From Pelomicrobium methylotrophicum (lineage in GTDB: Bacteria; Pseudomonadota; Gammaproteobacteria; Burkholderiales; UBA6910), in assembly GCF_008014345.1 (NCBI RefSeq), contig NZ_VPFL01000012.1, positions 1 to 24,000 on the forward strand: a DNA stretch of 24,000 nt, read 5' to 3'. The stretch's first letter is position 1. The number at the start of each line of letters is the position of its first letter. Shown in pieces: positions 700 to 20,663 of the stretch. The position numbers and the translations under genes were made by a program. The notes below the pieces were generated by a model. The model did no database searches and had not been told where the DNA came from. It was given only the letters and a program-made list of their open reading frames with translations.

Positions 700-808
700 C
701 CCAGTCTATTCGGCAAACCCCCGCTGGGGCGGGAGCTGTCAACCCGGCTTGATGCCGTGCCTGCCTTATTTGCAACTCAGTTTAGCACTGAGCTGCTGGT
801 TCATGGAA

Positions 809-879
809 TGGAGCGGACGGGACTCAACCCGCAACCAACAGGTTGGCGCCTGTTGCTCTCCCAGTTGAGCTACCGCCCC
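809..879 (-). tRNA. tRNA-like gene, non-canonical (possible pseudogene or atypical tRNA)
   Basis: The minus strand from 879 to 809 folds by hand as GGGGCGG TA GCTC AACTGGGA GAGC A ACAGG CGCCAA CCTGT TGGTT GCGGG TTGAGT CCCGT CCGCTCC A. The acceptor stem has 7 bp with G3:U70, and the D arm is canonical. Both the anticodon loop (CGCCAA, + strand 843-848) and the T loop (TTGAGT) have 6 nt instead of 7. No CCA is encoded. Confidence 0.5.
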
Positions 880-958
880 AGCGGACAGCGAATATCCGCC
901 CTCTCGCGCTTGTCAGGCGCACGGATATCAGCTGCTGCGGCTTTCCAGCCTCTACCGC

Positions 959-1167: not shown

Positions 1168-1232
1168 GGGCCTCCTTGTTGAACCGCCCGGAGAAGCCCA
1201 TCCCCCGTCCGGGGAAGGCTCCCCGGGCGGGG
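1168..1232 (-). promoter_or_regulatory. Conserved leader copy 1: SD-sequestering helix + palindrome P1
   Basis: In minus-strand RNA, GGGCUUCU (reverse complement of 1192-1199) pairs with the SD GGAGGCCC (reverse complement of 1168-1175): 8 bp including 2 G:U. P1 arms are CCCCGTCCGGGGA (1203-1215) and TCCCCGGGCGGGG (1220-1232), with loop AGGC. Confidence 0.6.
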
Positions 1233-1260
1233 TTGACAAAATCCGCGTCGCCGCTAATCT
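1233..1260 (+). promoter_or_regulatory. Sigma70-type promoter for X1 (TTGACA-16-TAATCT)
   Basis: TTGACA at 1233-1238 directly abuts P1. TAATCT is at 1255-1260, and the X1 ATG is 29 nt downstream. The same arrangement recurs at 1705-1732 and 2163-2190. Confidence 0.55.
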
Positions 1261-1288
1261 TCAGTCAGATTAAGCAAGGACGCACAAG

Positions 1289-1498
1289 ATGAAAAAATTT
1301 CAAGTCGTCGAAGGAAAACGCGAAGAGCTCCGTACGGAAGCTCTTTACGCGCTCTTTGACTATCTGCGCTCAGGCGACCAGGCGGCATCGAATCGCTTCG
1401 ATGCGATTGACAAACGCCTAGCTCGCCGAGCGGAGCTCAACGTTGTTGAAATCTCTCAATCTCCCACCGGGAGATCTTTTCCTCCTCGATTGCCCTGA
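1289..1498 (+). CDS. Small protein X1 (69 aa), paralog family MKKFQV(V/I)EG
   Basis: N-terminus MKKFQVVEGKREELRTEALYALF. It aligns with X3 (MKKFQVIEGSRQQMEQKAYEAF), and the DNA differences fall mostly at codon third positions (aaa/aag, caa/cag, gtc/gtt, gga/ggc). An AAGGA motif lies 9 nt upstream. The last 62 nt overlap gene Yb on the opposite strand. Confidence 0.6.
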   Translation: MKKFQVVEGKREELRTEALYALFDYLRSGDQAASNRFDAIDKRLARRAELNVVEISQSPTGRSFPPRLP

Positions 1499-1640
1499 TC
1501 ATCCGCCGGATGTCCCCGGCAAGGTCCCGGTCAGCGCAATTACTCAACTTCGCCTTTGCTTCTTCCAGAGCGAAATCGAGACCTTCATCCGTGGCCCGAT
1601 CGAGCCAACCATAAAAATCTTTCCAGAATTGCTTGTTCAT
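1437..1640 (-). CDS. Small helical protein Yb (67 aa), paralog family with Yc and Yd
   Basis: ATG at 1638-1640 is preceded by GGAGGAACC. It translates MNKQFWKDFYGWLDRATDEGLDFALEEAKAKL...IEEEKISRWEIERFQQR. It aligns without gaps to Yc/Yd over F..WL..A....L...L. Confidence 0.65.
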   Translation of the reverse strand: MNKQFWKDFYGWLDRATDEGLDFALEEAKAKLSNCADRDLAGDIRRMIRAIEEEKISRWEIERFQQR

Positions 1641-1704
1641 GGTTCCTCCGTTGATGCGCCCGAAGGAACCCATCCCCCGTCCGGGGAAGGCTCCCCGGGC
1701 GGGG
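1641..1704 (-). promoter_or_regulatory. Conserved leader copy 2: SD-sequestering helix + palindrome P1
   Basis: GGUUCCUUCG (reverse complement of 1661-1670) pairs with CGGAGGAACC (reverse complement of 1641-1650): 10 bp including 1 G:U, ending at the AUG. P1 arms are 1675-1687 and 1692-1704. Confidence 0.6.
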
Positions 1705-1732
1705 TTGACAAAACAAGCGTCTCCGCTAACCT
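1705..1732 (+). promoter_or_regulatory. Sigma70-type promoter for X2 (TTGACA-16-TAACCT)
   Basis: TTGACA is at 1705-1710, abutting P1. TAACCT is at 1727-1732. Confidence 0.5.
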
Positions 1733-1763
1733 GCATATCATCTATGCAGATCAGGACGACGAA

Positions 1764-1961
1764 ATGAACGAACTGAAGGTTATCGAGGGCGGCCGAAGGA
1801 TCCTGGAAGAAAAGCTGATCAAGCTTCTCTTCACCCCGGGGCCGGTCCCTTCTGACGAGGTCGAAAGGCTGAATGCCCGGCTTTCATCCCGGGCGAACCT
1901 CAAGATCGTTTCCGATCGCCGAGAGCCAGACGGGCCGCAATCTCCTCTTCGAGGAGGCTGA
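1764..1961 (+). CDS. Small protein X2 (65 aa), paralog of X1/X3
   Basis: ATG at 1764 has AGGA 7 nt upstream. It translates MNELKVIEGGRRILEEKLIKLLF...RLNARLSSRANLKIV. It shares the xxLKVIEGGR N-terminus and the RL..R..L segment with X1/X3. The last 62 nt overlap Yc. Confidence 0.5.
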   Translation: MNELKVIEGGRRILEEKLIKLLFTPGPVPSDEVERLNARLSSRANLKIVSDRREPDGPQSPLRGG

Positions 1962-2100
1962 TTCCCAGCCTCAGGTCTCTCAATCCCTCGCTGGATAGTT
2001 TTTTTTCGTGGAGCCTAAACAGCTCCAACCGCTCTTCAAGCTCATTCAGGCTTGCCTTTCCGAGCCAGCGCATGAACGAGCGCAGCACTTCCTTATCCAC
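1900..2100 (-). CDS. Small helical protein Yc (66 aa)
   Basis: GTG at 2098-2100 lies 5 nt after AGGAGG (reverse complement of 2105-2110). It translates VDKEVLRSFMRWLGKASLNELEERLELFRLHEKKL...LLEEEIAARLALGDRKRS. The longer track ORF would translate the palindrome. Confidence 0.6.
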   Translation of the reverse strand: MDKEVLRSFMRWLGKASLNELEERLELFRLHEKKLSSEGLRDLRLGISLLEEEIAARLALGDRKRS

Positions 2101-2162
2101 GGCATCCTCCTGATGCCCGGAGGAAGCCGCTTCCCCGTCCGGGGAAGGCTCCCCGGGCGGGG
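2101..2162 (-). promoter_or_regulatory. Conserved leader copy 3: SD-sequestering helix + palindrome P1
   Basis: GGCUUCCUCC (reverse complement of 2119-2128) pairs with GGAGGAUGCC (reverse complement of 2101-2110): 9 of 10 bp. P1 arms are 2133-2145 and 2150-2162. Confidence 0.6.
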
Positions 2163-2190
2163 TTGACAAAACCGGCGCCGCCGCTAATCT
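2163..2190 (+). promoter_or_regulatory. Sigma70-type promoter for X3 (TTGACA-16-TAATCT)
   Basis: TTGACA is at 2163-2168, abutting P1. TAATCT is at 2185-2190. Confidence 0.55.
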
Positions 2191-2215
2191 GCAACCATCA
2201 GCAGCGGAGACGGGA

Positions 2216-2410
2216 ATGAAGAAATTTCAGGTTATTGAAGGCTCCAGGCAGCAGATGGAACAGAAGGCTTATGAAGCGTTTTTGGAAAATGACTTCAAGA
2301 CCTTTTTTACAATCTGCCGCAGGATGGACAAAAGAGCCCGCCTCAGCGATGTAACCGGCGAAGCTCCTGGCGAGCCGCCAGCTCCTCGCGGATCATCTCC
2401 GCGGCCCTGA
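2216..2410 (+). CDS. Small protein X3 (64 aa), paralog of X1/X2
   Basis: It translates MKKFQVIEGSRQQMEQKAYEAFLEN...MDKRARLSDV. GGAG lies 7 nt upstream. The last 68 nt overlap Yd. Confidence 0.6.
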   Translation: MKKFQVIEGSRQQMEQKAYEAFLENDFKTFFTICRRMDKRARLSDVTGEAPGEPPAPRGSSPRP

Positions 2411-2537
2411 CCAATCCGGCGCGAATTTCTTCGTCGCCTTTCTTGAGGGCCTGCTCGATGGCGGCGAGCTTTTGGAGAAGCTCGTCATCACTGGCCTCGT
2501 TGCAGAAACGGGCCAGCATTTTGATTGCCTCCTTCAT
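2343..2537 (-). CDS. Small helical protein Yd (64 aa)
   Basis: ATG at 2535-2537 is preceded by GGGAGGAAACC. It translates MKEAIKMLARFCNEASDDELLQKLAAIEQALKKGDEE...IREELAARQELRRLHR. Confidence 0.65.
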   Translation of the reverse strand: MKEAIKMLARFCNEASDDELLQKLAAIEQALKKGDEEIRAGLVRAAEMIREELAARQELRRLHR

Positions 2538-2603: not shown

Positions 2604-2618
2604 TTGAACAAAGGCCGT

Positions 2619-2695
2619 GACGGCTTCCGCCGCTCGGCCCACAAGCCCCGCGCGCGGCGGGGCGGACATTGCCGGGATGACCTCCCGGCAGGGTT
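2619..2695. repeat. 77-nt repeat, copy 1 (identical to 3475-3551)
   Basis: GACGGCTTCCGCCGCTCGGCCCACAAGCCCCGCGCGCGGCGGGGCGGACATTGCCGGGATGACCTCCCGGCAGGGTT. It contains two hairpins: GCCCCGC/GCGGGGC (2645-2663) and GCCGGGA/TCCCGGC (2671-2689). Confidence 0.9.
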
Positions 2696-2747
2696 GAATC
2701 AAGCTCTCCTTTCTGTGCCGTCCGCGCCGGCGTCATAGAAAGGAAAC

Positions 2748-3019: not shown

Positions 3020-3394
3020 TTAGGCGAGCGGGAATCTTACCGCTCTGGCGGCGTTTTCGATCGCCAGTGCCTTCGTGTTGGGGAGCGCTTTGTAACTTCT
3101 CCCCTCCGAAATAACATCCTGGTCAAGAAACGCCACCAGGGATTGTCTCGAGAAACGAAGCACTCCTTCGCCCTCGAGCCCCACCGCCCTCGCCTCGGCA
3201 TCGGTCAGAGTGACTTCGACTTCACCCCTGACTTTTGCGGAGGACGAGAACTTCGCCGCGCCGATGTAAACCACATCCCCTTTCGGGGTTCTGGCGCGGC
3301 CAAGGATGAGGACGGGCCTTATTTTGTACCGCCCGTCTCCTTCTTGAAACGGAACCCTCGCCCTCACGAAGGTCCCTATCGGGACTGCATTCAT
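3020..3394 (-). CDS. PemK/MazF-like toxin-fold protein (124 aa), array gene 'e'
   Basis: ATG at 3392-3394 follows AAGGAGGAGCC. It translates MNAVPIGTFVRARVPFQEGDGRYKIRPVLILGRA...GDVVYIGAAKFSSS. The pattern (G.i..v.fP...g..K.RPvlvl) is typical of PemK/MazF SH3-like toxins. The track ORF extended to 3649 reads through the non-coding repeats. Confidence 0.75.
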   Translation of the reverse strand: MNAVPIGTFVRARVPFQEGDGRYKIRPVLILGRARTPKGDVVYIGAAKFSSSAKVRGEVEVTLTDAEARAVGLEGEGVLRFSRQSLVAFLDQDVISEGRSYKALPNTKALAIENAARAVRFPLA

Positions 3395-3459
3395 GGCTCC
3401 TCCTTTCATTGCCAGGAGGAAGCCTCCCCCGTCCGGGGAAAGGCTTCCACCAGACGGGG
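3395..3459 (-). promoter_or_regulatory. Conserved leader copy 5: SD-sequestering helix + degenerate palindrome P1
   Basis: GGCU(U)CCUCCU (reverse complement of 3414-3424) pairs with AGGAGGAGCC (reverse complement of 3395-3404): 10 bp with one bulge. The outer P1 stem is CCCCGTC (3427-3433) / GACGGGG (3453-3459), and the inner part is imperfect. Confidence 0.6.
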
Positions 3460-3474
3460 TTGAACAACGACCGG

Positions 3475-3551
3475 GACGGCTTCCGCCGCTCGGCCCACAA
3501 GCCCCGCGCGCGGCGGGGCGGACATTGCCGGGATGACCTCCCGGCAGGGTT
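3475..3551. repeat. 77-nt repeat, copy 2 (identical to 2619-2695)
   Basis: 77 of 77 identical by eye. It sits at the same distance from the downstream minus-strand start codon as copy 1 (157 vs 158 nt). Confidence 0.9.
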
Positions 3552-4205: not shown

Positions 4206-4329
4206 TTAACTCTCATCCCCGCTCTAACGGGGTAATGCACTCAGACACTTCGTTCGAAGGACATCCATGGGAACCAAAAGGAAAAACCGCTTCGTTTCGG
4301 CCTCTTCCGGCTGCCCTCAAGGGGATTAT

Positions 4330-4692
4330 ATGAACCCGGCGCAGCTCGAATGGTTTCGGGCGAGGCTGCTTGATATGCTCAAGGCGTGCCGCGAAGAGCT
4401 TCGGGGCTTGCGGTCTGAAAAATCCGGTTTCGATTCCAGCGGCGACGAGGCCGATGCGGCGGCAGCGCGCGAGATCGACTTTCGCGACGCCGCCAAGGCG
4501 GCGCTGATCTCCGCCCGATGCGAAGAAATCGAAGCGGCTCTTCGACGAATCGATTCCGGGGAGTACGGATGGTGCGAGGAAACCGGAGAGCCGATAGGGC
4601 TTCAGAGGATGATTGCCAATCCACTGTCGCGTTTCAGCCTCGAAGCCCAGGCGCGCAGAGAAGCCATGTCGCGTTTAAGCAAAAGTCATTAA
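4330..4692 (+). CDS. DksA/TraR-family protein with degenerate zinc finger (120 aa)
   Basis: It translates ...ALRRIDSGEYGWCEETGEPIGLQRMIANPLSRFSLEAQ. This matches the DksA/TraR C-terminal signature (G.YG.C..CGe.I...RL.a.P.a..C..Cq), but only 1 of the 4 Cys is retained. The start at 4330 (after AAGGGG) is preferred over 4267. Confidence 0.7.
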   Translation: MNPAQLEWFRARLLDMLKACREELRGLRSEKSGFDSSGDEADAAAAREIDFRDAAKAALISARCEEIEAALRRIDSGEYGWCEETGEPIGLQRMIANPLSRFSLEAQARREAMSRLSKSH

Positions 4693-5006
4693 TGGGTACA
4701 CTACATTTTTATGCCCAGGAAGGGCCCCACGACGTTGCGTATGTTGCAGGGACGAAGAAAGCGCTTATCCTGTTGCGCGACGCAATCGATCGTGCGCTTT
4801 CATCTGGCCGGAGCGAATTTTGGACTTTCGCATCCGATGGCGAGGGCTACGCGGTCATCGTCCACGAAGTGTGCGACTCTCTGGCCGCGCGCCTGGCCGT
4901 TCCGTACATGCGGGACGAATACATGGAACGCAGCCGGGAAGCGATTCGCCCGTTCGATTTGGACGCCGCCAAAAGCGATCTGGCTGGAGACGATCTCCCG
5001 TTCTAG
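4692..5006 (+). CDS. Hypothetical protein (104 aa)
   Basis: TAATG overlap with the DksA-like stop. It translates MGTLHFYAQEGPHDVAYVAGTKKALILLRDAIDRAL... Confidence 0.6.
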   Translation: MGTLHFYAQEGPHDVAYVAGTKKALILLRDAIDRALSSGRSEFWTFASDGEGYAVIVHEVCDSLAARLAVPYMRDEYMERSREAIRPFDLDAAKSDLAGDDLPF

Positions 5007-5082
5007 TTCCTGGCGCCGCAGGCGGCCAGCCTGGCATGAGCCGGCACCGTCCGCTGCTTTTTCTTGAAGACGGGAAAGGCAA

Positions 5083-5346
5083 TCAGCCTTCGTGGTGTTT
5101 GACCGCGTTGCCGTGATGCGCCTTCGCCTTCTGGCGCATCGATTCATGACATTGCTTGAGCGCAGAGACGTCCTCGGCCTTCTCCACGCAGGCCCGGTGC
5201 TCCCGCAGCATCGCCTCCCGGCGGTCGATCCTCTCCAGCGCCCTCGCCTTCATCTGCTGAAAGTCCGGGCCCCCGGGCGCTTTCCCGTCCGCGGCAAAAG
5301 CGCCGAGGGAGAAGACAAGGCCCGCCATCGCAACGAAAAGACGCAT
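5083..5346 (-). CDS. Secreted small helical protein with His-rich C-terminus
   Basis: ATG at 5346 follows AAGGAG. The signal peptide is MRLFVAMAGLVFSLGAFAADG. The C-terminus reads KAKAHHGNAVKHHEG. Confidence 0.6.
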   Translation of the reverse strand: MRLFVAMAGLVFSLGAFAADGKAPGGPDFQQMKARALERIDRREAMLREHRACVEKAEDVSALKQCHESMRQKAKAHHGNAVKHHEG

Positions 5347-5440
5347 CGCCCGCTCCTTCGCATTCAAGGTTGAAAAAAGACGCCGATTTGGACCCCAGAT
5401 CGACCATCGACCGCATCGGTTCCAGGAACGGCATTCGCGC

Positions 5441-5647
5441 TCAGTTGGGCGGCAATCTCCACTTCCATCGCCCAGCGGGCACTTTCATGCTGATCCTCCC
5501 TTTCCCATGGATCTCCACATAGATTTCCAGCTCCCCGGACGGAAGCGCCCTCGCCCTTTCGTCCGGAATGTCAGCCGGATTCACGCCGCGCAGGCAAGCC
5601 GCTGCCCGGCGCCCGCCTTCCGAAACCTCGATTCTTTCTTCGTCCAT
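5441..5647 (-). CDS. Hypothetical small protein (68 aa)
   Basis: ATG at 5645-5647 lies 6 nt after AAGGAG. It translates MDEERIEVSEGGRRAAACLRGVNPADIPDE... Confidence 0.4.
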   Translation of the reverse strand: MDEERIEVSEGGRRAAACLRGVNPADIPDERARALPSGELEIYVEIHGKGRISMKVPAGRWKWRLPPN

Positions 5648-5771
5648 CACTCTCTCCTTCAGGCCGATCGATCAATTCTACCGGTTCCATTAAAATACCG
5701 GCCTGGCGCGGCAAGCTTGCCGCCGCGCCATTCTGAGCTTTCGGACGTCCCAGCTTCGGCCATTGGGAGGC

Positions 5772-6359
5772 TCAAAAAAGCGCGTCCTCCGGCCGTCCGA
5801 GGGCTCGAAGCACGCGCTCCACATCAATGTTGACATCGATCGCCCGAAGCATGCCCTTGATTGATTCCATTGCGATCAGAAGCGCGCCATTTTCATCGAT
5901 GACGCGCCTCCTCACGAGGACGTGCCGAAGTCCAGCCCGCGCCCCCGGCGATCGGCACGCAATCTTTCTCGCGTCGCGGCACTCCAGAATCGCCATGATT
6001 CCTATCGCCCCCGACATCGGTTGGCAGTCCCAAAACGAAAAGTCTTCCCCAAGCAGAGCACTGCTTCGCTCCGGCGTGAGCGCGCCGTTACGCGCGAGAA
6101 GCAGCCACCGTGCGCATCGGACTATGATCTCTCCGGCGAGCCGCGCATCAGTCAGCACGACTGGATCCCAGCGCTCGTCGTCCACGAAACGCACCAGCCT
6201 GGACCGCCTACGCAGCCTTCGTGTCAGCTCTTCCCCTATCACGCCAAGCATTTCGGCATATGCGTTCTCGTCCTGATTGGACAAGCGGTATGGCATCCGC
6301 CAGGCTGGATTCTGCATTTTCAGCCGTCTTTCCATGTCGACACGATATTCTTCGTCCAT
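5772..6359 (-). CDS. Hypothetical protein (195 aa)
   Basis: ATG is preceded by GAGGAGACTTGAA. It is a long ORF with a non-repetitive composition. I recognise no family. Confidence 0.6.
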   Translation of the reverse strand: MDEEYRVDMERRLKMQNPAWRMPYRLSNQDENAYAEMLGVIGEELTRRLRRRSRLVRFVDDERWDPVVLTDARLAGEIIVRCARWLLLARNGALTPERSSALLGEDFSFWDCQPMSGAIGIMAILECRDARKIACRSPGARAGLRHVLVRRRVIDENGALLIAMESIKGMLRAIDVNIDVERVLRALGRPEDALF

Positions 6360-6995
6360 TTCAAGTCTCCTCGATTTGTCGGTCCGTTATGTCGGCACCT
6401 GTATATATGTCGACGAGGAAATCCATGGACCCCGGCTTTCTTGCCGTGCGTTCGGCTGGCGGCCTCCCGCGCCTGGCCTGATGCGTCCTCCGTTGCGATT
6501 GCCGGCGGATGACGGCTTCTTGCCGACCATGGCGCCTTAATCAAAAGACGCCCGTCCACCTCATGCCCCGCCCTTCGTGGCATATGATGGCCGTCCGCGG
6601 GCCCGCAGACCAATGGTTCCCTGGACGATGCGCATGCAACGGAGTCCGCGGTTTGCCGGGCATCCCACCTGGCGCCTCTTTGGGAGATGACGCCCAAAGA
6701 TGCCCAAGAACGACTCAAGATCGACTTGGCGCTCTTCAACAAGAAACGGCGGCCGGCTGGCTCCTCTTCTCTACAACGCCCAGCGCCCCAACCATCGCCT
6801 GGGGCAACAAGCGCCCCTACAATTCCTCCTCCAACATCAACCCCGGCGCCAGAGGTGCTGGACTCATATCTTCAGCCCAAAGAGGATGTTAGTTGAAAGA
6901 TTTCCAGATCGGCCTCCATTGGCTAAAACCCAGGCTTGCATGCAGCGCGGTTTATGATGTAATGGCGCAGACTGAGGTTTCATCGTCGGCGCGGC

Positions 6996-7381
6996 ATGGA
7001 AATAAAGGAAACCCGAAAAAAAGACGGAACCCGCGAATGGAGGTTTTGCGGCAAACTCCACCGCGTGGACGGCCCGGCTGTTGAAAAGGCCGATGGCACG
7101 AGGGAGTGGTGGCGGGAAGGCAAGTTGCACCGCAAACACGAGCCTGCAGTAGAAAGCCTGATGGGACTAAAGAATGGTGGAGGCATGGCAAGCTGCACCG
7201 CATTCTCGCTCCGTCAGTAGAGCGTCCGGATGGCACGAAAGAATGGTGGCGGTTTGGCAAGCGCCATCGGGAGGATGGGCCGGCTGTAGAAAAGGCCGAC
7301 GGCACGAAGGAATGGTGGGTCGATGGACGGAGGCTCGATCCGATCGAATTCATAGCGTTGCGTTGCACCGGCCCTTCCTGA
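6996..7381 (+). pseudogene. MORN-repeat protein, frameshifted
   Basis: There are five 23-aa repeats (DGT[RK]EWW..GKLHR.DGPAVEKA). Reading switches from the frame of 6996 to the frame of 7157 at 7152-7159. The sequence there is GAAAGCCTGAT, where the paralogous repeat junctions read GAAAAGGCCGAT, so it is one base short. The first frame stops at 7218-7220. Confidence 0.7.
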
Positions 7382-7513
7382 CGGCCGGCCGGAGACCTCG
7401 GCGACGGCCGCCATCCGCGCCCGCAAAAGGAGACGGTTGGACGTGCAGAGCATGGAGCATGGAGGCCGCCTTCGAATCCGTTTGAGCGACTGGCCGTTTT
7501 CGTCTAATATTAT

Positions 7514-7525
7514 GTGAACGTTCAC
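7514..7525. promoter_or_regulatory. Perfect 12-bp palindrome GTGAACGTTCAC between a TAATAT -10-like box and the methyltransferase start
   Basis: GTGAAC|GTTCAC is at 7514-7525, TAATAT at 7505-7510 and the ATG at 7536. This position fits an operator. Assigning it as one is inference. Confidence 0.4.
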
Positions 7526-7535
7526 GAAGAAAAAC

Positions 7536-8555
7536 ATGGACGACACAGCAGTTCTACGCCAGAGAAAACGCCTGGAGCGGTTGGCGAAAAGAGGAATAAA
7601 GCGCAGCACTGTCATGGTGCACGATGCCTGTCGCTCTGCGCTGGATGCGCTTCGACCCCACTATATCGATCCATCAAGTGCGCAGGCTCTGCAAAGAGCC
7701 GCCGTAATCGTAAAGAGCGAGACGAGGCTCGTTAACGTAGCGCAGGTCAGGCAACTAAGTCCTTTCCGTTACCCTGGCGGAAAGACATGGCTCGTGCCAG
7801 AGGTAAAAACGTGGTTGCGATCGTTGCCCCGGCGACCGTCGATTTTTCTGGAACCATTTGCTGGAGGCGCGATCGTCGGTCTGACGGTGGCCGCAGAAAG
7901 CATGGCCGGCAAGGTCATACTGTGCGAGCTTGATGATTCAGTTGCAGCTGTCTGGAAAACGCTGATTCACGGAACCGACACGGACGCGAATTGGCTATGT
8001 GATCGGATCCTCAAATTCGAGGTCACGGAAGACAACGTGCGATCATTGCTTGAAAAAAAAGTCAAAAGCGACAGGGAAAGGGCTTTTCAGACCATCGTTC
8101 GAAACCGCATGCAGCGCGGCGGCATCCTGGCTCCAGGCGCTTCTCTGATGAAGTCTGGCGAGAACGGAAGGGGCCTGGGATCGAGGTGGTATCCGGAAAC
8201 GTTGGTTTCCAGAATCAAGGCTATTCGGAACATCAGACACAGAATTGAGTTCCGACACCAGGACGCCTTTGATCTTATCAAAGAATACACTGCCAAGAAC
8301 GATGTCGCCTGGTTTGTGGATCCTCCTTACACGGCCGGCGGAAAGCGAGCTGGAGCGCGCCTCTATACACACACGCAGATAGATCACGACAGACTGTTTC
8401 GGGAGATGTCCTGCACAAAAGGAGATGTATTGATGACTTATGATGATGCGCCCGAAGTCGCGCATCTTGCGGAACGATATGGAATGGGCATTAGAAAAGT
8501 GCCTATGAAAAGCACGCACCACGCGATCATGTACGAACTTCTTTTATCAAAATAG
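7536..8555 (+). CDS. N6-adenine DNA methyltransferase, Dam/D12 class, with ~75-aa N-terminal extension
   Basis: Motifs present: FRYPGGK, EPFAGGA and VDPPYT, in the order typical of Dam-like (alpha group) m6A methyltransferases. The region has lower GC than its flanks. Confidence 0.9.
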   Translation: MDDTAVLRQRKRLERLAKRGIKRSTVMVHDACRSALDALRPHYIDPSSAQALQRAAVIVKSETRLVNVAQVRQLSPFRYPGGKTWLVPEVKTWLRSLPRRPSIFLEPFAGGAIVGLTVAAESMAGKVILCELDDSVAAVWKTLIHGTDTDANWLCDRILKFEVTEDNVRSLLEKKVKSDRERAFQTIVRNRMQRGGILAPGASLMKSGENGRGLGSRWYPETLVSRIKAIRNIRHRIEFRHQDAFDLIKEYTAKNDVAWFVDPPYTAGGKRAGARLYTHTQIDHDRLFREMSCTKGDVLMTYDDAPEVAHLAERYGMGIRKVPMKSTHHAIMYELLLSK

Positions 8556-9506
8556 TTTGATGACCTTCTTACGCTTATTTGAGGCTTTTTCTATCAAGTC
8601 GTTTAGTTGAGACGTGAATCGGTTGGCCGGAATGGGAAGCGCAGCTTCAACGGCTTTGACGGAGCTGATTAGAGTTGTGTAATGCTCATTTACTACCTTT
8701 GCACACTCTCCAGGCCGAAGATCAACAACGAACCAAACTATTTGTGACAAAGCGAGCTTCTCAAGGCGCAGTTCTTCGTCGTTCATGCCGTCGCAGTTTA
8801 CGCTGACCTCCTCGAGTTCAGCCATTTGGCTGCGAACGTATGTATCCACGATGACGGCCAGGTATTTGCCACTGCCCAAGTATGGCGCTTTCAACATCAA
8901 TTGGGGTGACAAACGTTTCGGAACCGAGCTGCGATAATCCGGCCTTCGCCGCGCAACAGGCATTGTCAGTTCTCCGCCGGCTGAGATAATGGCATCGAAT
9001 TCTATTTTCATGTTGCGTCCAGAAAAATAGACGGACTGCGTTTCGACAGCGCACCATCTCTTACGATCAATGTTGTCGACGAGCACAAAGTCGAGGCGCC
9101 CTGCCTTTGCGCCGATGAATTGACTATTTGCCGCCGCATTCTGAAGAAAAGGGACCTCGCGCACCAAATAGACCTCGTCAGAGCCAAGGATGGCTTTCCC
9201 TATGCGCTTGAAAACCTCTGGCTCAAGCAGTCTCGAAGGGCAGAGAGAAACAATGTCTTGCGAAACATTTGGCAGATTGTCGTCAGTCGACTGTGTATAT
9301 AGCGCGATGCTGCATACCCCTCCGTTTTTATTGCACATCATGGGCCTGCCAAACAGTCTCGTGCGATATGGGCATTCGAGATTTGCAACTTTATGCGTTA
9401 GTTTTGCTTTATGAGCGAATTCAAGGCGGTCATTGGCGGTCATGGAGACAATTGGCCTGCCGAACCACTCCGAGATTCCATACTTTATGGCAACCATTTC
9501 TTGCAT
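8547..9506 (-). CDS. Type II restriction endonuclease, NotI-family-like
   Basis: It is convergent with the methyltransferase and overlaps it by 9 nt. The N-terminus reads SEWFG ... CPYRTRLFGRPMMCNKNGGVCSI ... LCPSR, and later ETQSVYFSG. From memory this resembles the NotI Cys cluster and the E.Q...F.G core. It shares the low-GC island. Confidence 0.7.
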   Translation of the reverse strand: MQEMVAIKYGISEWFGRPIVSMTANDRLEFAHKAKLTHKVANLECPYRTRLFGRPMMCNKNGGVCSIALYTQSTDDNLPNVSQDIVSLCPSRLLEPEVFKRIGKAILGSDEVYLVREVPFLQNAAANSQFIGAKAGRLDFVLVDNIDRKRWCAVETQSVYFSGRNMKIEFDAIISAGGELTMPVARRRPDYRSSVPKRLSPQLMLKAPYLGSGKYLAVIVDTYVRSQMAELEEVSVNCDGMNDEELRLEKLALSQIVWFVVDLRPGECAKVVNEHYTTLISSVKAVEAALPIPANRFTSQLNDLIEKASNKRKKVIKLF

Positions 9507-9955
9507 AGTAGGAATATATTGTTTTTTCTAAAGAATTTTTTGTTGGAACGATTCTACAGAACGAGGAAGTGCGCTCATAATGCCACGTTTTTGCGAAACT
9601 CGGGATCGATTCGGCTGCCCATCGTTCAGTTCAACCGTAGCCATCGATTCGTACCGAAAGGATTGTGCAGTCCCTTTTCTGCCGATTCCGTGGCGCCTGG
9701 AATGACGGGGTTTACGGGTCGAGACAGAAACAGCCCTTGAACTTACTCCTCGCGCCACTCGGCCATCCAGGCAGAGATGAGCCGGAGGCAGTCATCGTGT
9801 CCGGGAAAACGCTCCGCCAAGCCGGGCCGATCACGGCGCTCATACGGCATGTTCACCTCGAATGCGGAGGTGCGCTTCCCTGGCGTCATGGCGCGACGCA
9901 AACGCAGTTTGAGGAGCGGTGCGGACTTAGGCGGTTGTGATGTCCTGGAGCGACC

Positions 9956-11188
9956 ATGCGGATTCTGAACCGCCGCCATCTCGTCTCCCCCTGGCCGGCG
10001 CACGCGGTCTGGGTAGGCCGTCCGACGCCGCTGGGGAATCCTTTCGTCATCGGCCGGGACGGCTCGCGCGAGGAGGTGATCGCGCGCTACCGCGAGTGGC
10101 TCGAGGCCAGGATCCGGGAGCGCGACCCGGCGGTGCTGACCGCGATGGCGGGTCTGCGCGAAGACTCTTCTCTGGTGTGCGCCTGCGCCCCCGAGCCCTG
10201 CCATGCGGAAGCGATCCGGGAAGCCTGGATGAAGCATTTCAGGGACGGAATCGTGGTGCGTCCGGCCTACCATGAGGATGGCTCCATACCCCTCGACGGC
10301 GAAGTGTTCGTGTTCGGCTCGAACCTGGCCGGCCGGCATGGGGCGGGGGCGGCGGCGGAAGCCTTCGACCGTTTCGGCGCGCGCCGGGGCGTGGGCGAGG
10401 GCTACATGGGCGAGCCGCCCCGGCACTGTTACGCCATCCCGACCAAGGACGAGCGGCTTGCCGTCCTGTCGCTGGACAAAATCGCCGCGGCGGTCGGGCG
10501 GTTTGTTGAGTTCGCGGCCTCGCGCCCCGAACTGCGCTTCTTCGTCACCCGCGTCGGCTGCGGCCTGGCGGGGTACCGGGACGAGCAAATCGCGCCGCTT
10601 TTCGCTGGCGCGCCGCTTGCCCGGTGCAGCTTTCCCCGGCCGTGGCGCAGGTATTTGGAGCCGCGCTCGATGGCCTACGCCGGCGGCGGCGCTCGCCACG
10701 CCCCGCTTCCCGTCCTGCGCAGGATGACCCGCATCGCGCAGCGGCTGGAGGCGCGCGGCTACGTGCTGCGGACCGGCGGCGGCAACGACACGGACAGCGC
10801 CTTCGAGGCCGGGTGCGCGAAGAAGGAAGTGTTTCTGCCCTGGCCCGGCTTCAACGGACGCACTTCGGCCTTCGATTCGGTGTCCGAGGAGGCGCTGGCG
10901 GTGGCGAGCGCGGCGCACCCGGCGTTTCGCAGGCTCACGGCGGAGGCGCGGCTGCTGGCGGGGCGGGAAAGCCACCGCATCCTGGGGGCGGACCTGCGCA
11001 CGCCGGCCGATTTTCTCGTCTGCTGGACGCCGGACGGCGCGCAATCGGAGGCGGAGATCGGGCGGGAGACGGGAGAGGCCGCGTTGGCCATCGCGCTCGC
11101 CGACCGCTGGGCGGTCCCCGTGTTCAACCTCGCCCGGGCGGACGCGCTGGAGCGGCTGGCGGCGCTTTTGGATGTTGCTGCAGGATGA
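9956..11188 (+). CDS. Three-domain fusion: DUF4326 + A1S_2505-like phage domain + SLOG/DprA-like Rossmann domain (410 aa)
   Basis: aa 1-95: VWVGRPTPLGNPF...ARYREWL...LVCACAPEPCHAE (DUF4326 pattern). aa ~105-235: VFVFGSNLAGRHGAGAAAEA...YAIPTKD...VTRVGCGLAGYRDEQIAPLF (A1S_2505-like). aa ~240-410: GYVLRTGGGNDTDSAFEAG...FLPWPGFNG...VCWTPDG (DprA/SLOG-like). GGAG lies 6 nt upstream of the ATG. Confidence 0.8.
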   Translation: MRILNRRHLVSPWPAHAVWVGRPTPLGNPFVIGRDGSREEVIARYREWLEARIRERDPAVLTAMAGLREDSSLVCACAPEPCHAEAIREAWMKHFRDGIVVRPAYHEDGSIPLDGEVFVFGSNLAGRHGAGAAAEAFDRFGARRGVGEGYMGEPPRHCYAIPTKDERLAVLSLDKIAAAVGRFVEFAASRPELRFFVTRVGCGLAGYRDEQIAPLFAGAPLARCSFPRPWRRYLEPRSMAYAGGGARHAPLPVLRRMTRIAQRLEARGYVLRTGGGNDTDSAFEAGCAKKEVFLPWPGFNGRTSAFDSVSEEALAVASAAHPAFRRLTAEARLLAGRESHRILGADLRTPADFLVCWTPDGAQSEAEIGRETGEAALAIALADRWAVPVFNLARADALERLAALLDVAAG

Positions 11189-11203
11189 GGCTCAGTATAG
11201 GCG

Positions 11204-11740
11204 ATGGAGATCAGGCCGAATGCGATCCTTACGCGCCGGGTAAGGGGCCTCTATGGCCCGTCAGGCGCCTTGTTTCTCGTCCTTTCGCTGCTTTCGGCGC
11301 CTTTGAGCCTCGTGCTGGACGGCCCGAAGATGCTCGCGCCAGGCGCCGCCGTAGGCCTCCTTATGCTGGGGTGCGGCCTGTGGGCAAGGGCCTACAGCGG
11401 CGGCATTCCGGAATGCATGACGCTGGAAGGCGACAGGCTCAGAATCGTCTGGCCGGACGGGAAAATCGATCTCCTTCCGCTCGATGACCTCATGATTGGA
11501 AAGCGCGGCCTGCTGGCCGGATCCCGCTGGGTGGCTTTCTACGCGAAGTTTCGCGGCAGACCCTATGAGCCGCTGTACGACGCGCAAGCCCTCGGGCCGC
11601 TTTTTCTTCGGGCGCCGGAAGCGGGCGCCGTGGAATTCTTTCTGGAGGGCTTGAAGCGCGGCGCGCTCATGTGCTGGGGGCAAGCGCTCATCTGGACGGG
11701 CGCGGCCGCCGCCATCGCGGCCCGGATGGCCATCCTCTAG
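11204..11740 (+). CDS. Membrane protein (2 N-terminal TM segments, beta-rich middle, C-terminal hydrophobic tail)
   Basis: Hydrophobic segments are ALFLVLSLLSAPLSLVL, AAVGLLMLGCGLWA and a C-terminal ALIWTGAAAAIAARMAIL. It starts 16 nt after the fusion gene. The SD is weak and the start is uncertain. Confidence 0.5.
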   Translation: MEIRPNAILTRRVRGLYGPSGALFLVLSLLSAPLSLVLDGPKMLAPGAAVGLLMLGCGLWARAYSGGIPECMTLEGDRLRIVWPDGKIDLLPLDDLMIGKRGLLAGSRWVAFYAKFRGRPYEPLYDAQALGPLFLRAPEAGAVEFFLEGLKRGALMCWGQALIWTGAAAAIAARMAIL

Positions 11741-11927
11741 TCCCGCCGGGAAGAGATCGTTTTTTCAGGGCCTCCCTCTCCATCTCCTCGGCGCGCTCGG
11801 CGCTGGCGCGGGCAAAGACTGCGTCGACGGTCAGCGCGTAGCCGGCGTCCACGAGCCGGGCGGCGCCCCAGCGATCGAGGGCCTTGCGCGCACGGTGGAC
11901 GGCTGACCTGGCTCCTGGATGAGACAT
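11688..11927 (-). CDS. Hypothetical small protein, last gene of the nuclease-SRAP operon (uncertain)
   Basis: ATG lies 13 nt after the SRAP stop. It translates MSHPGARSAVHRARKALDRWGAARLVDAGYALTVDAVF... The C-terminal part is low complexity and overlaps the 3' end of 11204-11740. Confidence 0.3.
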   Translation of the reverse strand: MSHPGARSAVHRARKALDRWGAARLVDAGYALTVDAVFARASAERAEEMEREALKKRSLPGGTRGWPSGPRWRRPRPSR

Positions 11928-11940
11928 GATGCGCTCCAGT

Positions 11941-12627
11941 CTACATCGAAGCGGGCGCCAAGAGCTCAGGCGCGTCGTTCCGGGGGCTATTGACCTTCGG
12001 GCTCACGGGGTAGGCCTCAAGCTGTTCCGGCGGGCAGGGCGCGAGGAGCGGACGCAGCGCCTCGGGCTCCTGAATGCCCGGATCGAGCCAGAAGTCGTAG
12101 TCGCCGGGGGCGAGGATCACGGGCATCCGGTCATGGATCGGCTTGACCAGCGCATTGGCTTCGGTCGTCAGGATGCAGCAGGTGTCAATGATCTCGCCCT
12201 CGGGCGACACCCAGCACTCGGCAAGCCCCGCAAAGCCAAACAGTTCATCGTCCTTGTGCGGACGAATGAAAAATGGCTGCTTCAGGGTGCGTCCGCTCTC
12301 GACGACGATCTTCCACTCATAGAAACCGCTGGCCGGGAGGATGCACCGACTTCGACGCAACGCCGCCCGAAAGGCGGGTTTCGCGACCACTGTCTCCGCG
12401 CGGGCATTGATGAGTTTCGAACCGATGGAAGGGTCCTTGGCCCACCGAGGGATCAGCCCCCAACGGCAGAGGCCGGCACGCCGCCGGCCATCCGAGTCTT
12501 CCCGAACGACCAGCACGTGCGTCCCCGGCGCAATGTTGTACCGTGGCTCGAGATCGAGCTCATCCTCGAGCCGGAAGTGTTCGCGGATGCGTCTGCCCGG
12601 GGCGTACAGGGCGTAACGTCCACACAT
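11941..12627 (-). CDS. SOS-response-associated peptidase (SRAP/YedK/HMCES family)
   Basis: N-terminal MCGRY with the catalytic Cys2, then ...YNIAPG...RWGLIP.WAKD...INARAET...FYEW...TTEAN...HDRMPVIL, the canonical SRAP motifs. Confidence 0.9.
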   Translation of the reverse strand: MCGRYALYAPGRRIREHFRLEDELDLEPRYNIAPGTHVLVVREDSDGRRRAGLCRWGLIPRWAKDPSIGSKLINARAETVVAKPAFRAALRRSRCILPASGFYEWKIVVESGRTLKQPFFIRPHKDDELFGFAGLAECWVSPEGEIIDTCCILTTEANALVKPIHDRMPVILAPGDYDFWLDPGIQEPEALRPLLAPCPPEQLEAYPVSPKVNSPRNDAPELLAPASM

Positions 12628-12628
12628 C

Positions 12629-12913
12629 TCAGTGAACTTTCACAACCGCCTCGCGCAGGCGTCGCCACAGCGCCTCGATGATCACCATCGCGGCGTCGTC
12701 GGCGTGCCGGGTGCCCGTATCCGCCAGCAAGGCCTCGTTGCCCGACCACAAGCCAAAGTGGCTCCGAATCCACGCTCCCAATCCGAAGTGCAACATGATC
12801 AGATCGCACTCTGCCATCGCGGCAATCTTGGCCTTCTGATCCTCCGGCAGCAGCCCGAGGAGGACACCGACCGCCTGATCGACGGTTCGCGGCCATCGGA
12901 CCTCGTCACTCAT
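12629..12913 (-). CDS. Hypothetical protein, DUF6794-like (94 aa)
   Basis: It translates MSDEVRWPRTVDQAVGVLLGLLPEDQKAKIAAMAECDLIMLHFGLGAWIRSHFGLWSGNEALL. ATGA overlap with the upstream nuclease gene. The family name is from memory of the LHFGLG.WIRN.FGLW motif. Confidence 0.55.
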   Translation of the reverse strand: MSDEVRWPRTVDQAVGVLLGLLPEDQKAKIAAMAECDLIMLHFGLGAWIRSHFGLWSGNEALLADTGTRHADDAAMVIIEALWRRLREAVVKVH

Positions 12914-13461
12914 CGCATCGCCCTTCGCCATTCCCAGGGCGGCATCGGCTGGGTCTGCTCCCATAGACCCACCCGGCGCGAGCGCGCCTGCCACTCGGCA
13001 AGTTCATACTGCCGCGCATCTTCGGGCGATTGCTCGTGCGCGTACTTCCGATACCACCACGCCAGCCCGGCCTTCAGCTGCGCAAGCCCCGCATCCAGCG
13101 TCTTCGGACATGCGCCCGACCGGCAGCCTGGCTCCGCCACCATCACTTTGCCCACCACCCGCTGGAAGCGGTCGCGCTTGTGCCACTGCACCTCGACCGC
13201 CCTGCCGAAGACGAGTCCCGCCAAGGATTGTTTCGCGCGGCTGCCGAACGGCTGCCCCTTCTCCGGGGCGTCGATGCCGGCGAGCCTGACCCTGTGCTGC
13301 CGATGCGCTGAATCCAGCACCGTGATCGTGTCGCCGTCCGCTACGCCCACGACGGTGCCAATCAATACCTCTGCCCGGGCAGTTAGGCCCGTTGCCAGCA
13401 CGATCAAGACGAGCAGCAGTTCGATTGCCCGAATCGTCGTTGTCCCCTCTTTTGCTCTCAA
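12910..13461 (-). CDS. Secreted thermonuclease (staphylococcal-nuclease/SNase family)
   Basis: The signal-like N-terminus is followed by GTVVGVADGDTITVLD...RVRLAGIDAPEKGQPFG..AK..L...V.G. These are canonical SNase motifs. The start is a TTG and is uncertain. Confidence 0.85.
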   Translation of the reverse strand: MRAKEGTTTIRAIELLLVLIVLATGLTARAEVLIGTVVGVADGDTITVLDSAHRQHRVRLAGIDAPEKGQPFGSRAKQSLAGLVFGRAVEVQWHKRDRFQRVVGKVMVAEPGCRSGACPKTLDAGLAQLKAGLAWWYRKYAHEQSPEDARQYELAEWQARSRRVGLWEQTQPMPPWEWRRAMR

Positions 13462-13529
13462 ACCCGCAGTTCCGACCGATTACCGGCCATATTATCCCTG
13501 AAGGTTTGCACGACGTCTCGGGTGCCATC

Positions 13530-13712
13530 ATGACCATCGAACAGACTCCGCCCGATCTCTTGTCTTCCCGCCAGCGCGCCCGCGAGGCGGCCGCCCTCCT
13601 CGCCTTAGGGATCGCCCGCCTCTACGCCACCTTGCCGCAAGAGCACGAAATTTCCCTTGGCTTTCCGGCCCCCGAGCGCCTTCATACAAACCCCTCTCAA
13701 CCAGGCGTTTGA
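13530..13712 (+). CDS. Hypothetical small protein (60 aa)
   Basis: ATG at 13530. It translates MTIEQTPPDLLSSRQRAREAAALLALGIARLY... It ends 2 nt before the DUF2924 start. Confidence 0.4.
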   Translation: MTIEQTPPDLLSSRQRAREAAALLALGIARLYATLPQEHEISLGFPAPERLHTNPSQPGV

Positions 13713-13714
13713 CG

Positions 13715-14173
13715 ATGAAGGCAAGCGTTCAAGAACAATCCGTCGCGGCCCGCGTGGCCGCACTCGCCGACCTGCCGATGAACGAACTGTGGGCGTTGTG
13801 GGACCGGTACTTCCCACGCCGCCCCAGCCACCACAACCGCCACTACGTGGAGGCCCGTCTCGCCTACAAGCTCCAGGAAGAGGCCTTCGGCGCCTTGAAA
13901 CCCGAGGCCCGGGAACAGCTCCTGCGTATCGGCGAAGCGCACTCCAGGATCCAACGGCGCGCGCGCCGCGAGATTCACATCGTGCCCGGCACGGTGCTCG
14001 TCCGGGAGTACGGCGAGCGCGAGCACCGGGTAACCGCCTTGCCCGACGGCGGCTTCGACTACGAAGGGCGCCGCTTCAGGAGCCTGTCGGCGGTTGCCCG
14101 CTTCATCACCGGGCAACACTGGTCCGGACCGCTTTTCTTCGGGCTCGTCAAGCAGAAGCGGGAGCGCCGATGA
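13715..14173 (+). CDS. DUF2924-domain protein (recombinase-associated)
   Basis: It translates MKASVQEQSVAARVAALADLPMNELWALWDRYFPRRPSHHNRHYVEARLAYKLQEEAFGAL, the typical DUF2924 N-terminal pattern. Its stop overlaps the recombinase start (ATGA). Confidence 0.75.
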   Translation: MKASVQEQSVAARVAALADLPMNELWALWDRYFPRRPSHHNRHYVEARLAYKLQEEAFGALKPEAREQLLRIGEAHSRIQRRARREIHIVPGTVLVREYGEREHRVTALPDGGFDYEGRRFRSLSAVARFITGQHWSGPLFFGLVKQKRERR

Positions 14174-15303: not shown

Positions 15304-15340
15304 AACGGAAGACTTACGGCCAGGCGGCCAAGCAAGGCGA

Positions 15341-15942
15341 CTCTCAAGCCGCATTTGATAACGCCAGGCATTCGACAGCCAGTTCGACCTGTTCGGCCCC
15401 AACATCGCGCCAGTATTTCCCACCAGGCGCCTTGCGGTTCCACGCCATGCCAGAGGTATGCGGCATGGGAACGGCGAAAACGCCGTCCAGCACGCCATGA
15501 AGCCTCAAGATCGCCGGCTTGAGAATCGGGTGCGCATCCTTGGCAAGCAGCACCGGAGACTTCCTGGATCGCTCGATGTGCCAGTACAGCGGACCCGGAC
15601 CGAGAAACACTTCCGTCGCCGTGGTCCCGACCAGCAATAGAACCTTGGGGCGGGTCCTCAGCAGGAAAGCCGACAGCCACGGCAGGCAATGGTCGATCTC
15701 GGCCTTGGAGGGCTTCCGGTTGGCAGGCGGGCGGCACCGGACGATGTTGCCACGCCTTAGTCGCGGTTACGCTCCAGGCCACGCCGCCACAGCATGGCGT
15801 CGAGCACACGGCCGGCCTGCCCAACGAACCCCTCTCCGATCTCGTCCTCCTCAGCGCCGGGCGCCTCCCCAATGGCAAGCAGACCACCCGGCGGACAGGG
15901 CGTGGGAAAAACCGATCCGCGCGCGGCTTACGACAAGCCCAT
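15341..15942 (-). pseudogene. Family-4-like uracil-DNA glycosylase, decayed (stops + frameshift)
   Basis: Minus-strand translation gives ...LLAIGEAPGAEEDEIGEGFVGQAGRVLDAML...RNRD*, with the in-frame TAA at 15757-15759. A frame change follows, then GNIVRCRPPANRKPSKAEIDHCLPWL...LLLVGTTATEVFLG...MPHTSGMAWN. A further in-frame TAA is at 15928-15930. The N-terminal CxxC region is missing. Confidence 0.65.
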
Positions 15943-15956
15943 CACACAGCCGGCAC

Positions 15957-18922: not shown

Positions 18923-19233
18923 CAGAAGGGGTTCGCCGGCGGGGCAGGCCCCGTCTTGACGCGGCGGCGATTCGCATCCGGTGCGCCATTACCCGCGATG
19001 CTCATCCTGTGCTCTACGACGCGTTGCTCAATGTCAAGGGGAGAAAACGTCAGGAGCGCCTGCGCAACCTTGCCCAGCTCGGGGCCATGGTCGAGGCGGG
19101 CGCGTTCCGGCTCTCGCCGGAAGAGCCTCCGAAACCGGCTGAGGCCATGCAGAGGAAGCCTCGTTCCGTGACGGCCCGGGACGAATCCGCGCCCGCGAAA
19201 ATCGGCGACGACTTCCTCGGCTTCGGACTCTGA
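18919..19233 (+). CDS. ParR-like partition adaptor (candidate)
   Basis: GTGA overlap with the parM stop. The N-terminus is basic (RRRGRPRLDAAAIRIRCAI, RHH-like) and the tail is acidic/hydrophobic (DDFLGFGL). Position and size fit ParR. Confidence 0.5.
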   Translation: MTEGVRRRGRPRLDAAAIRIRCAITRDAHPVLYDALLNVKGRKRQERLRNLAQLGAMVEAGAFRLSPEEPPKPAEAMQRKPRSVTARDESAPAKIGDDFLGFGL

Positions 19234-19239
19234 GTCTTC

Positions 19240-20591: not shown

Positions 20592-20663
20592 TCGTTCGGA
20601 CTTGACAGAACCCCTTTTCATGCTCAAATCATGCCTGGGCTTTGGTTGAAAGAAAGGAGACTT

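Follow-up and report, generated by a model that had tools for sequence, protein, structure and literature searches.

The window analysed here comprises 24,000 nucleotides of Pelomicrobium methylotrophicum DNA (contig NZ_VPFL01000012.1, positions 1 to 24,000 of the forward strand). The contig bearing it is called C3 below, C7 and C37 being other contigs of the same 3.3-Mb assembly. The first 3.5 kb of the window carry small genes on both strands, punctuated by a 30-nt GC-rich palindrome, P1, which is the subject of this analysis. P1 lies in three identical copies at 1203-1232, 1675-1704 and 2133-2162, in a fourth copy with two mismatches at 2574-2603, and in a fifth, degenerate one at about 3425-3457; matches to P1 were found in none of 100 shuffled sequences. 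The substitutions of copy 4 are those given in a preliminary description of this stretch, namely a T:G pair at arm position 4 and an earlier T:G turned into T:A; copy 5, said there to keep only the outer 7 bp, does keep them, and retains some of the inner pairs too. In copies 1-3, as read from the sequence, P1 abuts TTGACA without a gap, followed by a 16-nt spacer and by TAATCT or TAACCT. These promoter-like sites, all on the plus strand, belong to three small open reading frames (ORFs), X1-X3: that of X1 spans 1233-1260 (TTGACA 1233-1238, TAATCT 1255-1260), that of X2 1705-1732 (TTGACA 1705-1710, TAACCT 1727-1732) and that of X3 2163-2190 (TTGACA 2163-2168, TAATCT 2185-2190). The preliminary description regarded P1 as an element in three tandem copies that could be an operator of a dimeric repressor occluding the X promoters, a hairpin in the leader RNA of the minus-strand genes, or both. 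The positions of these copies stand, yet they are not isolated operators, the five in the window belonging to a family with about 21 copies genome-wide.

On the minus strand, P1 belongs to a putative leader of about 75-95 nt that reads, in the direction of the gene, as a U-rich stretch ending in YAA, P1, a linker, a second helix and the start codon. P1 is here a GC helix of 11-13 bp based on CCCC/GGGG, and the linker measures 2-6 nt in nearly all copies. The second helix, of 8-12 bp, has as its 3' arm the Shine-Dalgarno (SD) sequence up to the start codon, an anti-SD arm (e.g. GGUUUCCUCC) being paired with GGAGG and the bases that follow it; it is referred to as the SD helix. The order start codon, SD helix, linker, P1, TCAA was seen in the 15 copies found first and then in 47 aligned ones, and the SD and start codon lie inside the helix or at its foot in every window copy and in the majority of the 47. 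Minimum free energy folds of single sequences recover both hairpins without a covariance model, with z-scores of -3.0 to -5.1 for the window copies; the leader as a whole has a folding energy of about -43 to -54 kcal/mol, its two hairpins remaining separate. Also considered was a short peptide whose frame would end at the TGA inside GGGGTTGA; it was ruled out, as this frame differs between copies.

The five leaders of the window, all on the minus strand, each precede a gene. Leader 1 (1160-1240, P1 at 1203-1232; z -3.0) reaches 66.4 bits with covariance model R2 (see below); its anti-SD arm at 1190-1199 pairs with the SD arm at 1168-1175, and the start codon of the following gene, Y1 (1165 to 959), occupies 1165-1163. 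Leader 2 (1635-1712, P1 at 1675-1704 and then a helix sequestering SD and AUG; R2 80.6 bits, z -3.8) precedes Y2 (1640 to 1437), and leader 3 (2095-2170, P1 at 2133-2162 and then the SD helix; R2 77.8 bits, z -4.0) precedes Y3 (2100 to 1900), which starts with GTG. Leader 4 (2532-2611; R2 78.5 bits, z -5.1) combines the P1 variant at 2574-2603 with a perfect 10-bp SD helix in front of Y4 (2537 to 2343). Leader 5 (3389-3467; R2 63.6 bits, z -4.7), with the degenerate P1 at about 3425-3457 and an SD helix, stands before a gene for a 124-aa protein (3394 to 3020) that is weakly PemK/MazF-like (Pfam PemK_toxin, E 0.11).

What lies on the other side of P1 is variable. In copies 1-3 the right flank consists of the promoter-like boxes and an X ORF, and in copies 4 and 5 of a block termed E2, whereas the left flank of every window P1 is the second inverted repeat, the SD helix, at the start of a minus-strand ORF. 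With the right flank varying in this way, it is the minus-strand gene start, and not the X promoter, that constantly accompanies P1. E2 is a block of 77-100 nt with two or three extra GC hairpins, found upstream of some leaders. Upstream of leader 4 it occupies 2604-2700 (minus strand; repeat family D3; three further GC hairpins), and upstream of leader 5 it occupies 3460-3551 (minus strand), being 96% identical over 102 nt to the copy at 2594-2695, though the P1 and SD helices of the same two leaders have diverged. On the gene strand E2 begins with AUUCAACCC and a hairpin, that is, with a P1-like unit without an SD helix; related copies stand upstream of leaders at C3:68712, 71718, 74978 and 86084, and E2 was also noted at L009 8745-8827, 11750-11830 and 15010-15070 and at L010 8120-8180.

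Covariation shows here that the pairing of both helices has been conserved. Since MAFFT alignments (A1-A3) did not keep the copies in structural register, a model seeded with a single sequence, together with alignments based on that model, was used instead: model R1 was built from one copy, that of leader 4, with a structure given by hand, and model R2 from 17 copies aligned by model. In the 17-copy alignment (A6), 95.6% of the cells at paired positions form standard pairs, vs 77.5% after column shuffling and 48-64% with slid partners, and 15 of the 23 base pairs have changed on both sides, 7 of them among the 13 of P1 and 8 among the 10 of the SD helix. The observed covariation values were reached by none of 500 shuffles, although permutation tests overstate the independence of the copies, which are related. 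The pairs that depart from Watson-Crick pairing tell the strand of the second helix: in the unique helices of the 47 aligned copies, SD-helix cells hold 38 G:U pairs if read on the gene strand and 8 if read on the other, and the SD helix therefore evolves as RNA on the mRNA strand. The suggestion that P1 forms a hairpin in the leader RNA of the minus-strand genes is supported by the adjoining hairpin that sequesters SD and AUG, by the covariation of both helices and by this count.

The arms of the two helices are also connected with each other. If segment 1 denotes the 5' arm of P1, segment 2 its 3' arm, segment 3 the anti-SD arm with the bases just after it and segment 4 the SD arm, then segment 1 is complementary not only to segment 2 but also to segment 3 (CUGUCG/CGACAG, CCAGCCG/CGGCUGG, UGUGG/CCACG). 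Across 44 unique copies, duplexes between segments 1 and 3 of the same leader have a mean energy of -12.07 kcal/mol, vs -9.34 kcal/mol for non-cognate combinations (0 of 5000 permutations), and the difference persists among representatives of nine sequence clusters (-9.83 vs -7.92 kcal/mol; 60 of 20,000), these frequencies not being true probabilities, given the relatedness of the copies. The negative control, segment 1 against segment 4, gave no cognate effect, and both known helices behaved as expected as positive controls. In window copies 1 to 5 the energy of the 1:3 duplex is -24.0, -17.0, -18.2, -15.1 and -16.5 kcal/mol, and in copy 1 the 1:3 fold with an open SD comes within 0.7 kcal/mol of the closed fold, i.e. 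the two are about isoenergetic.

Taken with the covariation, these features make it somewhat probable that P1 is the first helix of a conserved SD-sequestering leader of the downstream gene, copied across mobile elements of the MobH/type-F kind. The leader would then be a cassette-like cis element placed before most establishment and anti-defence genes of conjugative-plasmid-like elements. In its default fold segments 1:2 and 3:4 would be paired, with the ribosome site closed and translation off; in the alternative fold 1:3 would pair and the ribosome site would be open. P1 is regarded as the control helix because its 5' arm also complements the anti-SD arm, and opening P1, or occupying its 3' arm, would switch the gene on. 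It is conceivable, if tentative, that an undescribed four-segment RNA switch of this kind stands before nearly every establishment or anti-defence gene of a group of MobH/type-F conjugative plasmids and islands, so that a single signal opening P1, encoded by the element or by its host, would turn on the translation of the whole set, for instance on entry into a new host.

Several points count against assigning P1 to such a leader, besides the relatedness of the copies. The alignments in which covariation was scored were themselves fitted to the model. The wobble count of P1, 29 on one strand vs 18 on the other, does not decide its strand, and the window copies carry a T:G on the plus strand, that is, an A.C mismatch on the gene strand. 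The arms of P1 are nearly invariant within C3, which also fits a binder that recognises their sequence. Finally, any open state lies on average about 11 kcal/mol above the closed one, for which reason the 1:3 alternative would need an additional factor.

The genome was searched by profile, then by pattern and then with covariance models R1 and R2. The approximately 21 copies of the leader lie solely in C3:1-3.5 kb (the window), C3:68-86 kb and C7:28-43 kb; they are confined to these three mobile-element regions and are not dispersed over the chromosome as repetitive extragenic palindromes (REP) or bacterial interspersed mosaic elements (BIME) are. The genes that follow are mutually unrelated: they encode, among others, the weakly MazF-like protein, proteins of 218 and 230 aa, small membrane peptides, a PD-(D/E)XK nuclease (DUF3799), RecT, a primase, a ribonucleotide reductase and ArdC. 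Among other genomes, R2 matched 6 of 100 of the same order, none of the 8 same-family genomes in that sample being among them, and 6 of 150 drawn from the whole class, one of which was already in the order sample, i.e. 11 distinct genomes of 250. Most of these matches are several copies in the same orientation within a few kb. The distribution is patchy, in keeping with horizontal spread. No match to the leader was obtained in a megaplasmid of Pseudomonas aeruginosa, although it has one of the array proteins.

A case in point is the array on a 102,623-bp contig that corresponds to the complete plasmid pSTJ2 of Sulfuricystis multivorans (NZ_AP018720.1), a shared protein having the same position in both. 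The plasmid carries genes for a MobH-family relaxase, for type-F transfer, for an AcaB-family regulator and for a helicase, followed by a tRNA gene and some 20 leaders on one strand. Behind these leaders are genes for a DUF3799 nuclease, RecT, the single-stranded DNA-binding protein SSB, a Toprim primase, ribonucleotide reductase, ArdC, RadC, a methyltransferase-like protein of 696 aa and an SNF2-type helicase, as well as many small ORFs of no known kind. The gene order of the C7 region is that of the pSTJ2 array, and the gene content of both ties the leader to the establishment and anti-defence arrays of one kind of conjugative plasmid or island.

A few further observations concern these arrays. 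At the compact junctions of pSTJ2 (L032 9569, 12197 and 13184; L033 1122 and 7448) the upstream stop codon lies 8-11 nt before P1, as in UAA-GUCAA-CCCC; a terminating ribosome could there reach the foot of P1, a possible coupling mechanism suggested by this spacing. The first leader-bearing ORF after the tRNA gene in C7, in pSTJ2 and in a third genome encodes a conserved hydrophobic peptide of 25-28 aa (…VISRP[VI][IV]RAL…; L011 5634-5720, L032 6618-6700, L034 8075, L035 7923), which resembles type I toxin-like small membrane peptides. A normal tRNA gene is situated directly upstream of the array in C7 and pSTJ2, and directly downstream of the window array there is a tRNA-like gene (808-880, minus strand; 47 bits with the Rfam tRNA model) to which ARAGORN assigns no anticodon (a 2-base 'cc'). 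A HEARO RNA (RF02033) scoring 93.7 bits, above the gathering score, lies on the plus strand within the leader array of C7 (L011 6194-6430, i.e. G000:C7:30194-30430). An extra module upstream of leaders comprises a hairpin of 4-5 bp with the invariant loop TAGCTGG, then a AAACAGCAUCAAGG-like sequence, a hairpin and the leader; CAGC in its AAACAGCAUCAAGG-like part could pair with GCUG of the loop as a possible pseudoknot. It occurs in C7 (L011 4172, 6114, 9470, 12654 and 17007) and in many intergenic regions of pSTJ2 (L032/L033), and is absent from the window. Antitermination of the ops/RfaH type, considered because of GGCGGTAGCTGG-like hairpin loops ahead of some leaders in C7 and pSTJ2, certain copies reading GGCGGTAGCTGG itself, which is close to ops (GGCGGTAGnnTG), was rejected: the genome encodes only the housekeeping NusG, and the window lacks the module. 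In the remainder of the window (4267-24000) there are mobile-element genes, encoding a TraR/DksA zinc-finger protein, a D12-class methylase with a NotI-like endonuclease, a DUF4326 fusion protein, a large serine recombinase, an Integrase_1-family protein and a ParM-like actin.

The promoter-like boxes and the X genes must now be considered, for they are what suggests that P1 is a double-stranded operator of a dimeric repressor, perhaps X itself, occluding the X -35 box. At 1233, 1705 and 2163 the -35 hexamer matches the consensus at all six positions; TAATCT and TAACCT match TATAAT at three of six (A2 and T6 being present), with the spacer of 16 nt, and owing to these -10 hexamers a sigma-70 consensus scan called no promoter at the X1-X3 boxes. 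A small hairpin starts in or just after each -10 box (1255-1272, 1729-1755 and 2187-2210, plus strand; e.g. TAATCT...AGATTA and CTGCATA...TATGCAG), the letters differing between the three and the pairing being kept. TTGACA of copies 1-3 is also the reverse complement of the conserved 5' flank of the leader, UGUCAA. This flank is usually UUUCAA, GUUCAA or CUUCAA; it reads UGUCAA in window copies 1-3 and at C3:68096, where P1 likewise abuts the -35 without a gap. An exact TTGACA is present at 4 of the 47 aligned leaders, three of them with X genes and one with an unrelated divergent ORF, and no X-family gene is found beside 40 of the 47. Judged from these flanks, the use of TTGACA as the -35 of divergent X genes would be a secondary, local elaboration.

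X is a real family of small proteins, and this speaks for the operator, as do the near-invariant arms among the C3 copies. X1 (1289-1498), X2 (1764-1961) and X3 (2216-2410), all on the plus strand, converge on Y2, Y3 and Y4, respectively, and overlap them (X1 at the 3' end of Y2). The six X paralogues of the genome share M-x-K-x-[FL]-x-V-[IV]-[EDN]-G and R-L-x-x-R-A-x-L, their DNA having diverged (alignment A8), and a profile of the family matches 96 proteins at E<1e-3 among 1.84 billion representatives, mostly of 55-70 aa. Matches to the hidden Markov model of X were found next to leaders only. Y is a second small helical family. X and Y always form convergent pairs, six in this genome and one in a genome from another order, with 3' ends overlapping by 17-92 nt (window 1289-2537; L009 11342-11681; L011 17138-18068; L039 1122-1788), a layout that suggests antisense or collision control, or a two-gene addiction-like module. 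Every X upstream region lies directly against P1 of the next leader; the pair of the other order keeps the abutment too (TTGAGT, 17 nt, TACGCT). Since the contact of P1 with the -35 recurs at every X gene, including that of the other order, it is a conserved property of X-Y modules, and some coupling of P1 to X transcription may therefore exist. In the X-Y overlap, the 3' part of X1 contains a terminator-like hairpin with a T-rich tail (1459-1475, plus strand), to which a sequence at 1976-1994 is related; X transcripts may end at this hairpin, before the annotated stop of the long X ORF.

The predicted fold of X, an N-terminal tail and two helices with a predicted local distance difference test (pLDDT) of 74, has no significant match in the PDB and none to a DNA-binding fold, and no Pfam, NCBIfam or PHROG family matches the protein; X as a ribbon-helix-helix repressor was rejected accordingly. 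Besides the many copies that have no X neighbour, the variation of P1 argues against the operator. The arms differ within a single element with pairing kept, as in C7, where CCCCUCUCGGGG/CCCCGAGAGGGG stands against CCCCUGCGGGAU/GUCCCGCAGGGG, and they differ likewise among the copies of pSTJ2; half-sites are thus conserved within C3 and not within C7 or pSTJ2. The loop between the arms, i.e. the spacing of the half-sites, ranges over 3-9 nt, and over 3-5 nt even among C3 copies with conserved arms. Varying arms and loop fit a hairpin, and a dimeric protein reading two duplex half-sites would not tolerate them. In iterated operators of the KorA/KorB/KorC type, too, a palindrome is repeated over many transcription units of a single plasmid and at times overlaps promoter boxes, but there both the sequence and the half-site spacing are kept; P1, unlike these operators, keeps its pairing, varies in sequence and loop length and mostly has no adjacent promoter. 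An operator for the neighbouring promoter is consequently less likely than a leader hairpin, and as the primary role of P1 it is distinctly unlikely.

P1, together with the conserved TCAA beside it, might instead act as a structure on single-stranded DNA, for example as a priming or initiation signal for the Toprim/zinc-ribbon primase of the element, as a protein-loading site or as a recombination site, the SD helix being a separate RNA feature. A near-perfect palindrome forms on either strand, its non-Watson-Crick pairs show no clear strand bias, and the window copies favour T:G on the plus strand, the template for the Y genes. Units like P1 without an SD helix exist (E2; C7:35084). The copies recur in one orientation every 0.5-2 kb, in arrays with SSB, primase and ArdC and on a MobH/type-F plasmid, and such arrays resemble the leading regions of conjugative elements, whose DNA arrives in the recipient as one strand. 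There, structured GC-rich single-strand promoters, Frpo/ssi, have been described upstream of SSB, anti-restriction and methylase genes (PMC12672017, PMC11541004), and the leader shares with them its place as an intergenic GC-rich structure in co-oriented arrays of conjugative elements. The known single-strand promoters are, however, long hairpins with energies below -75 kcal/mol, in which -35 and -10 boxes are rebuilt, and they occur in a few copies per plasmid (PMC12672017), whereas P1 is a 13-bp helix without promoter boxes in its stem, present in 10-20 copies per element. The 2-6-nt spacing to the SD helix in nearly all copies, and the covariation of the P1 5' arm with the anti-SD arm, moreover tie P1 to a switch at the RNA level, and a function on single-stranded DNA is unlikely on balance.

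An RNA element could also have a simpler task. The leader sits between co-directional genes, a conserved promoter upstream of P1 on the gene strand was seen neither in the 47 aligned upstream regions nor by consensus scan, the stretch 5' of the helix is U-rich and single-stranded, and the upstream stop codon is close to P1 at the compact pSTJ2 junctions, all of which would suit an intercistronic processing or stability element, i.e. an RNase site or end stabiliser in a polycistronic minus-strand transcript without any part in a switch. Such an element would leave unexplained why P1 keeps a fixed short distance from the SD helix and why its 5' arm complements the anti-SD arm in a cognate-specific way. 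Nor is P1 an intrinsic terminator: no T run (U tract in the RNA) follows it on either strand, and a terminator scan calls none. Processing or stability as the only role of P1 is accordingly rather unlikely.

That the units are integron-type cassettes, with P1 and its GTTGA flank as an unusual attC site, was also considered, given that the genome holds a true integron integrase (TIGR02249, 470 bits, on C37), that the units of about 460 bp are in tandem, and that GTTGAAC or GTTGACA after P1 resembles the core GTTRRRY. The GTTGA flank, however, is on one side only, with no paired inverse core site (RYYYAAC); the arrays are not adjacent to intI, the classical attC beside intI on C37 looks quite different, and the same element precedes plasmid backbone genes (SSB, RecT, primase) with an SD helix that is RNA-like. 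The cassette reading is thereby largely refuted and highly improbable. The full-length intI lies at G000:C37:7409-8353, with a classical attC (GCATAAC...GTTAGGC) about 650-800 bp upstream, and intI-like fragments occur on C24, C11 and C65.

With P1 read as the first helix of an SD-sequestering leader, the question of its relatives arises. The covariance models of Rfam 15 found nothing on the leaders, even at E up to 10, their only matches elsewhere being to tRNA, HEARO and cobalamin; a 12-bit match of DUF3085-RNA to one pSTJ2 copy was dismissed as noise, as it was not repeated on the homologous copy. By analogy, the nearest functional counterparts would be SD-sequestering leaders (RNA thermometers, leaders of type I toxin mRNAs) and four-segment attenuators of the ermC type, and the nearest in layout the DUF1874 motif. 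Like these leaders and attenuators, the present leader has its SD and start codon buried in a helix, and it would share with them four segments with mutually exclusive pairings (1:2 and 3:4 against an alternative that frees segment 4) and a closed state by default. It differs in that the alternative pairing is 1:3 and not 2:3, and in that neither a leader peptide nor a ligand pocket is evident. Its closed state has too much stability for an RNA thermometer, and the element stands before 10-20 different genes of one mobile element instead of serving a single gene. The DUF1874 motif recurs in consecutive intergenic regions of mobile DNA, and whether it functions as RNA or as single-stranded DNA is not separable by sequence alone (Weinberg et al. 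2017, PMC5737381). The leader shares with it the layout motif-ORF-motif, the association with mobile DNA and this same ambiguity between RNA and single-stranded DNA. It differs in that it includes the ribosome-binding site of the downstream gene and in that no sequence or structure match exists in Rfam 15.

To sum up, the element appears to be a structured translational leader, hitherto undescribed, that occurs in multiple copies before the establishment genes of mobile elements. The genes that conjugative elements need first in a new host (SSB, recombinases, anti-restriction proteins, methylases) are controlled mainly at the level of transcription, via single-strand promoters. If the proposed role holds, a leader that occludes the ribosome site before each such gene would add a layer of translational control, through a switch that would be compact and, its four short segments being open to compensatory mutation, testable. 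For the window itself, the palindrome would be reassigned from the plus-strand X promoters to the minus-strand genes, and the covariance model would provide a search tool for such arrays, together with the many small genes of no known kind that they carry, in other genomes.

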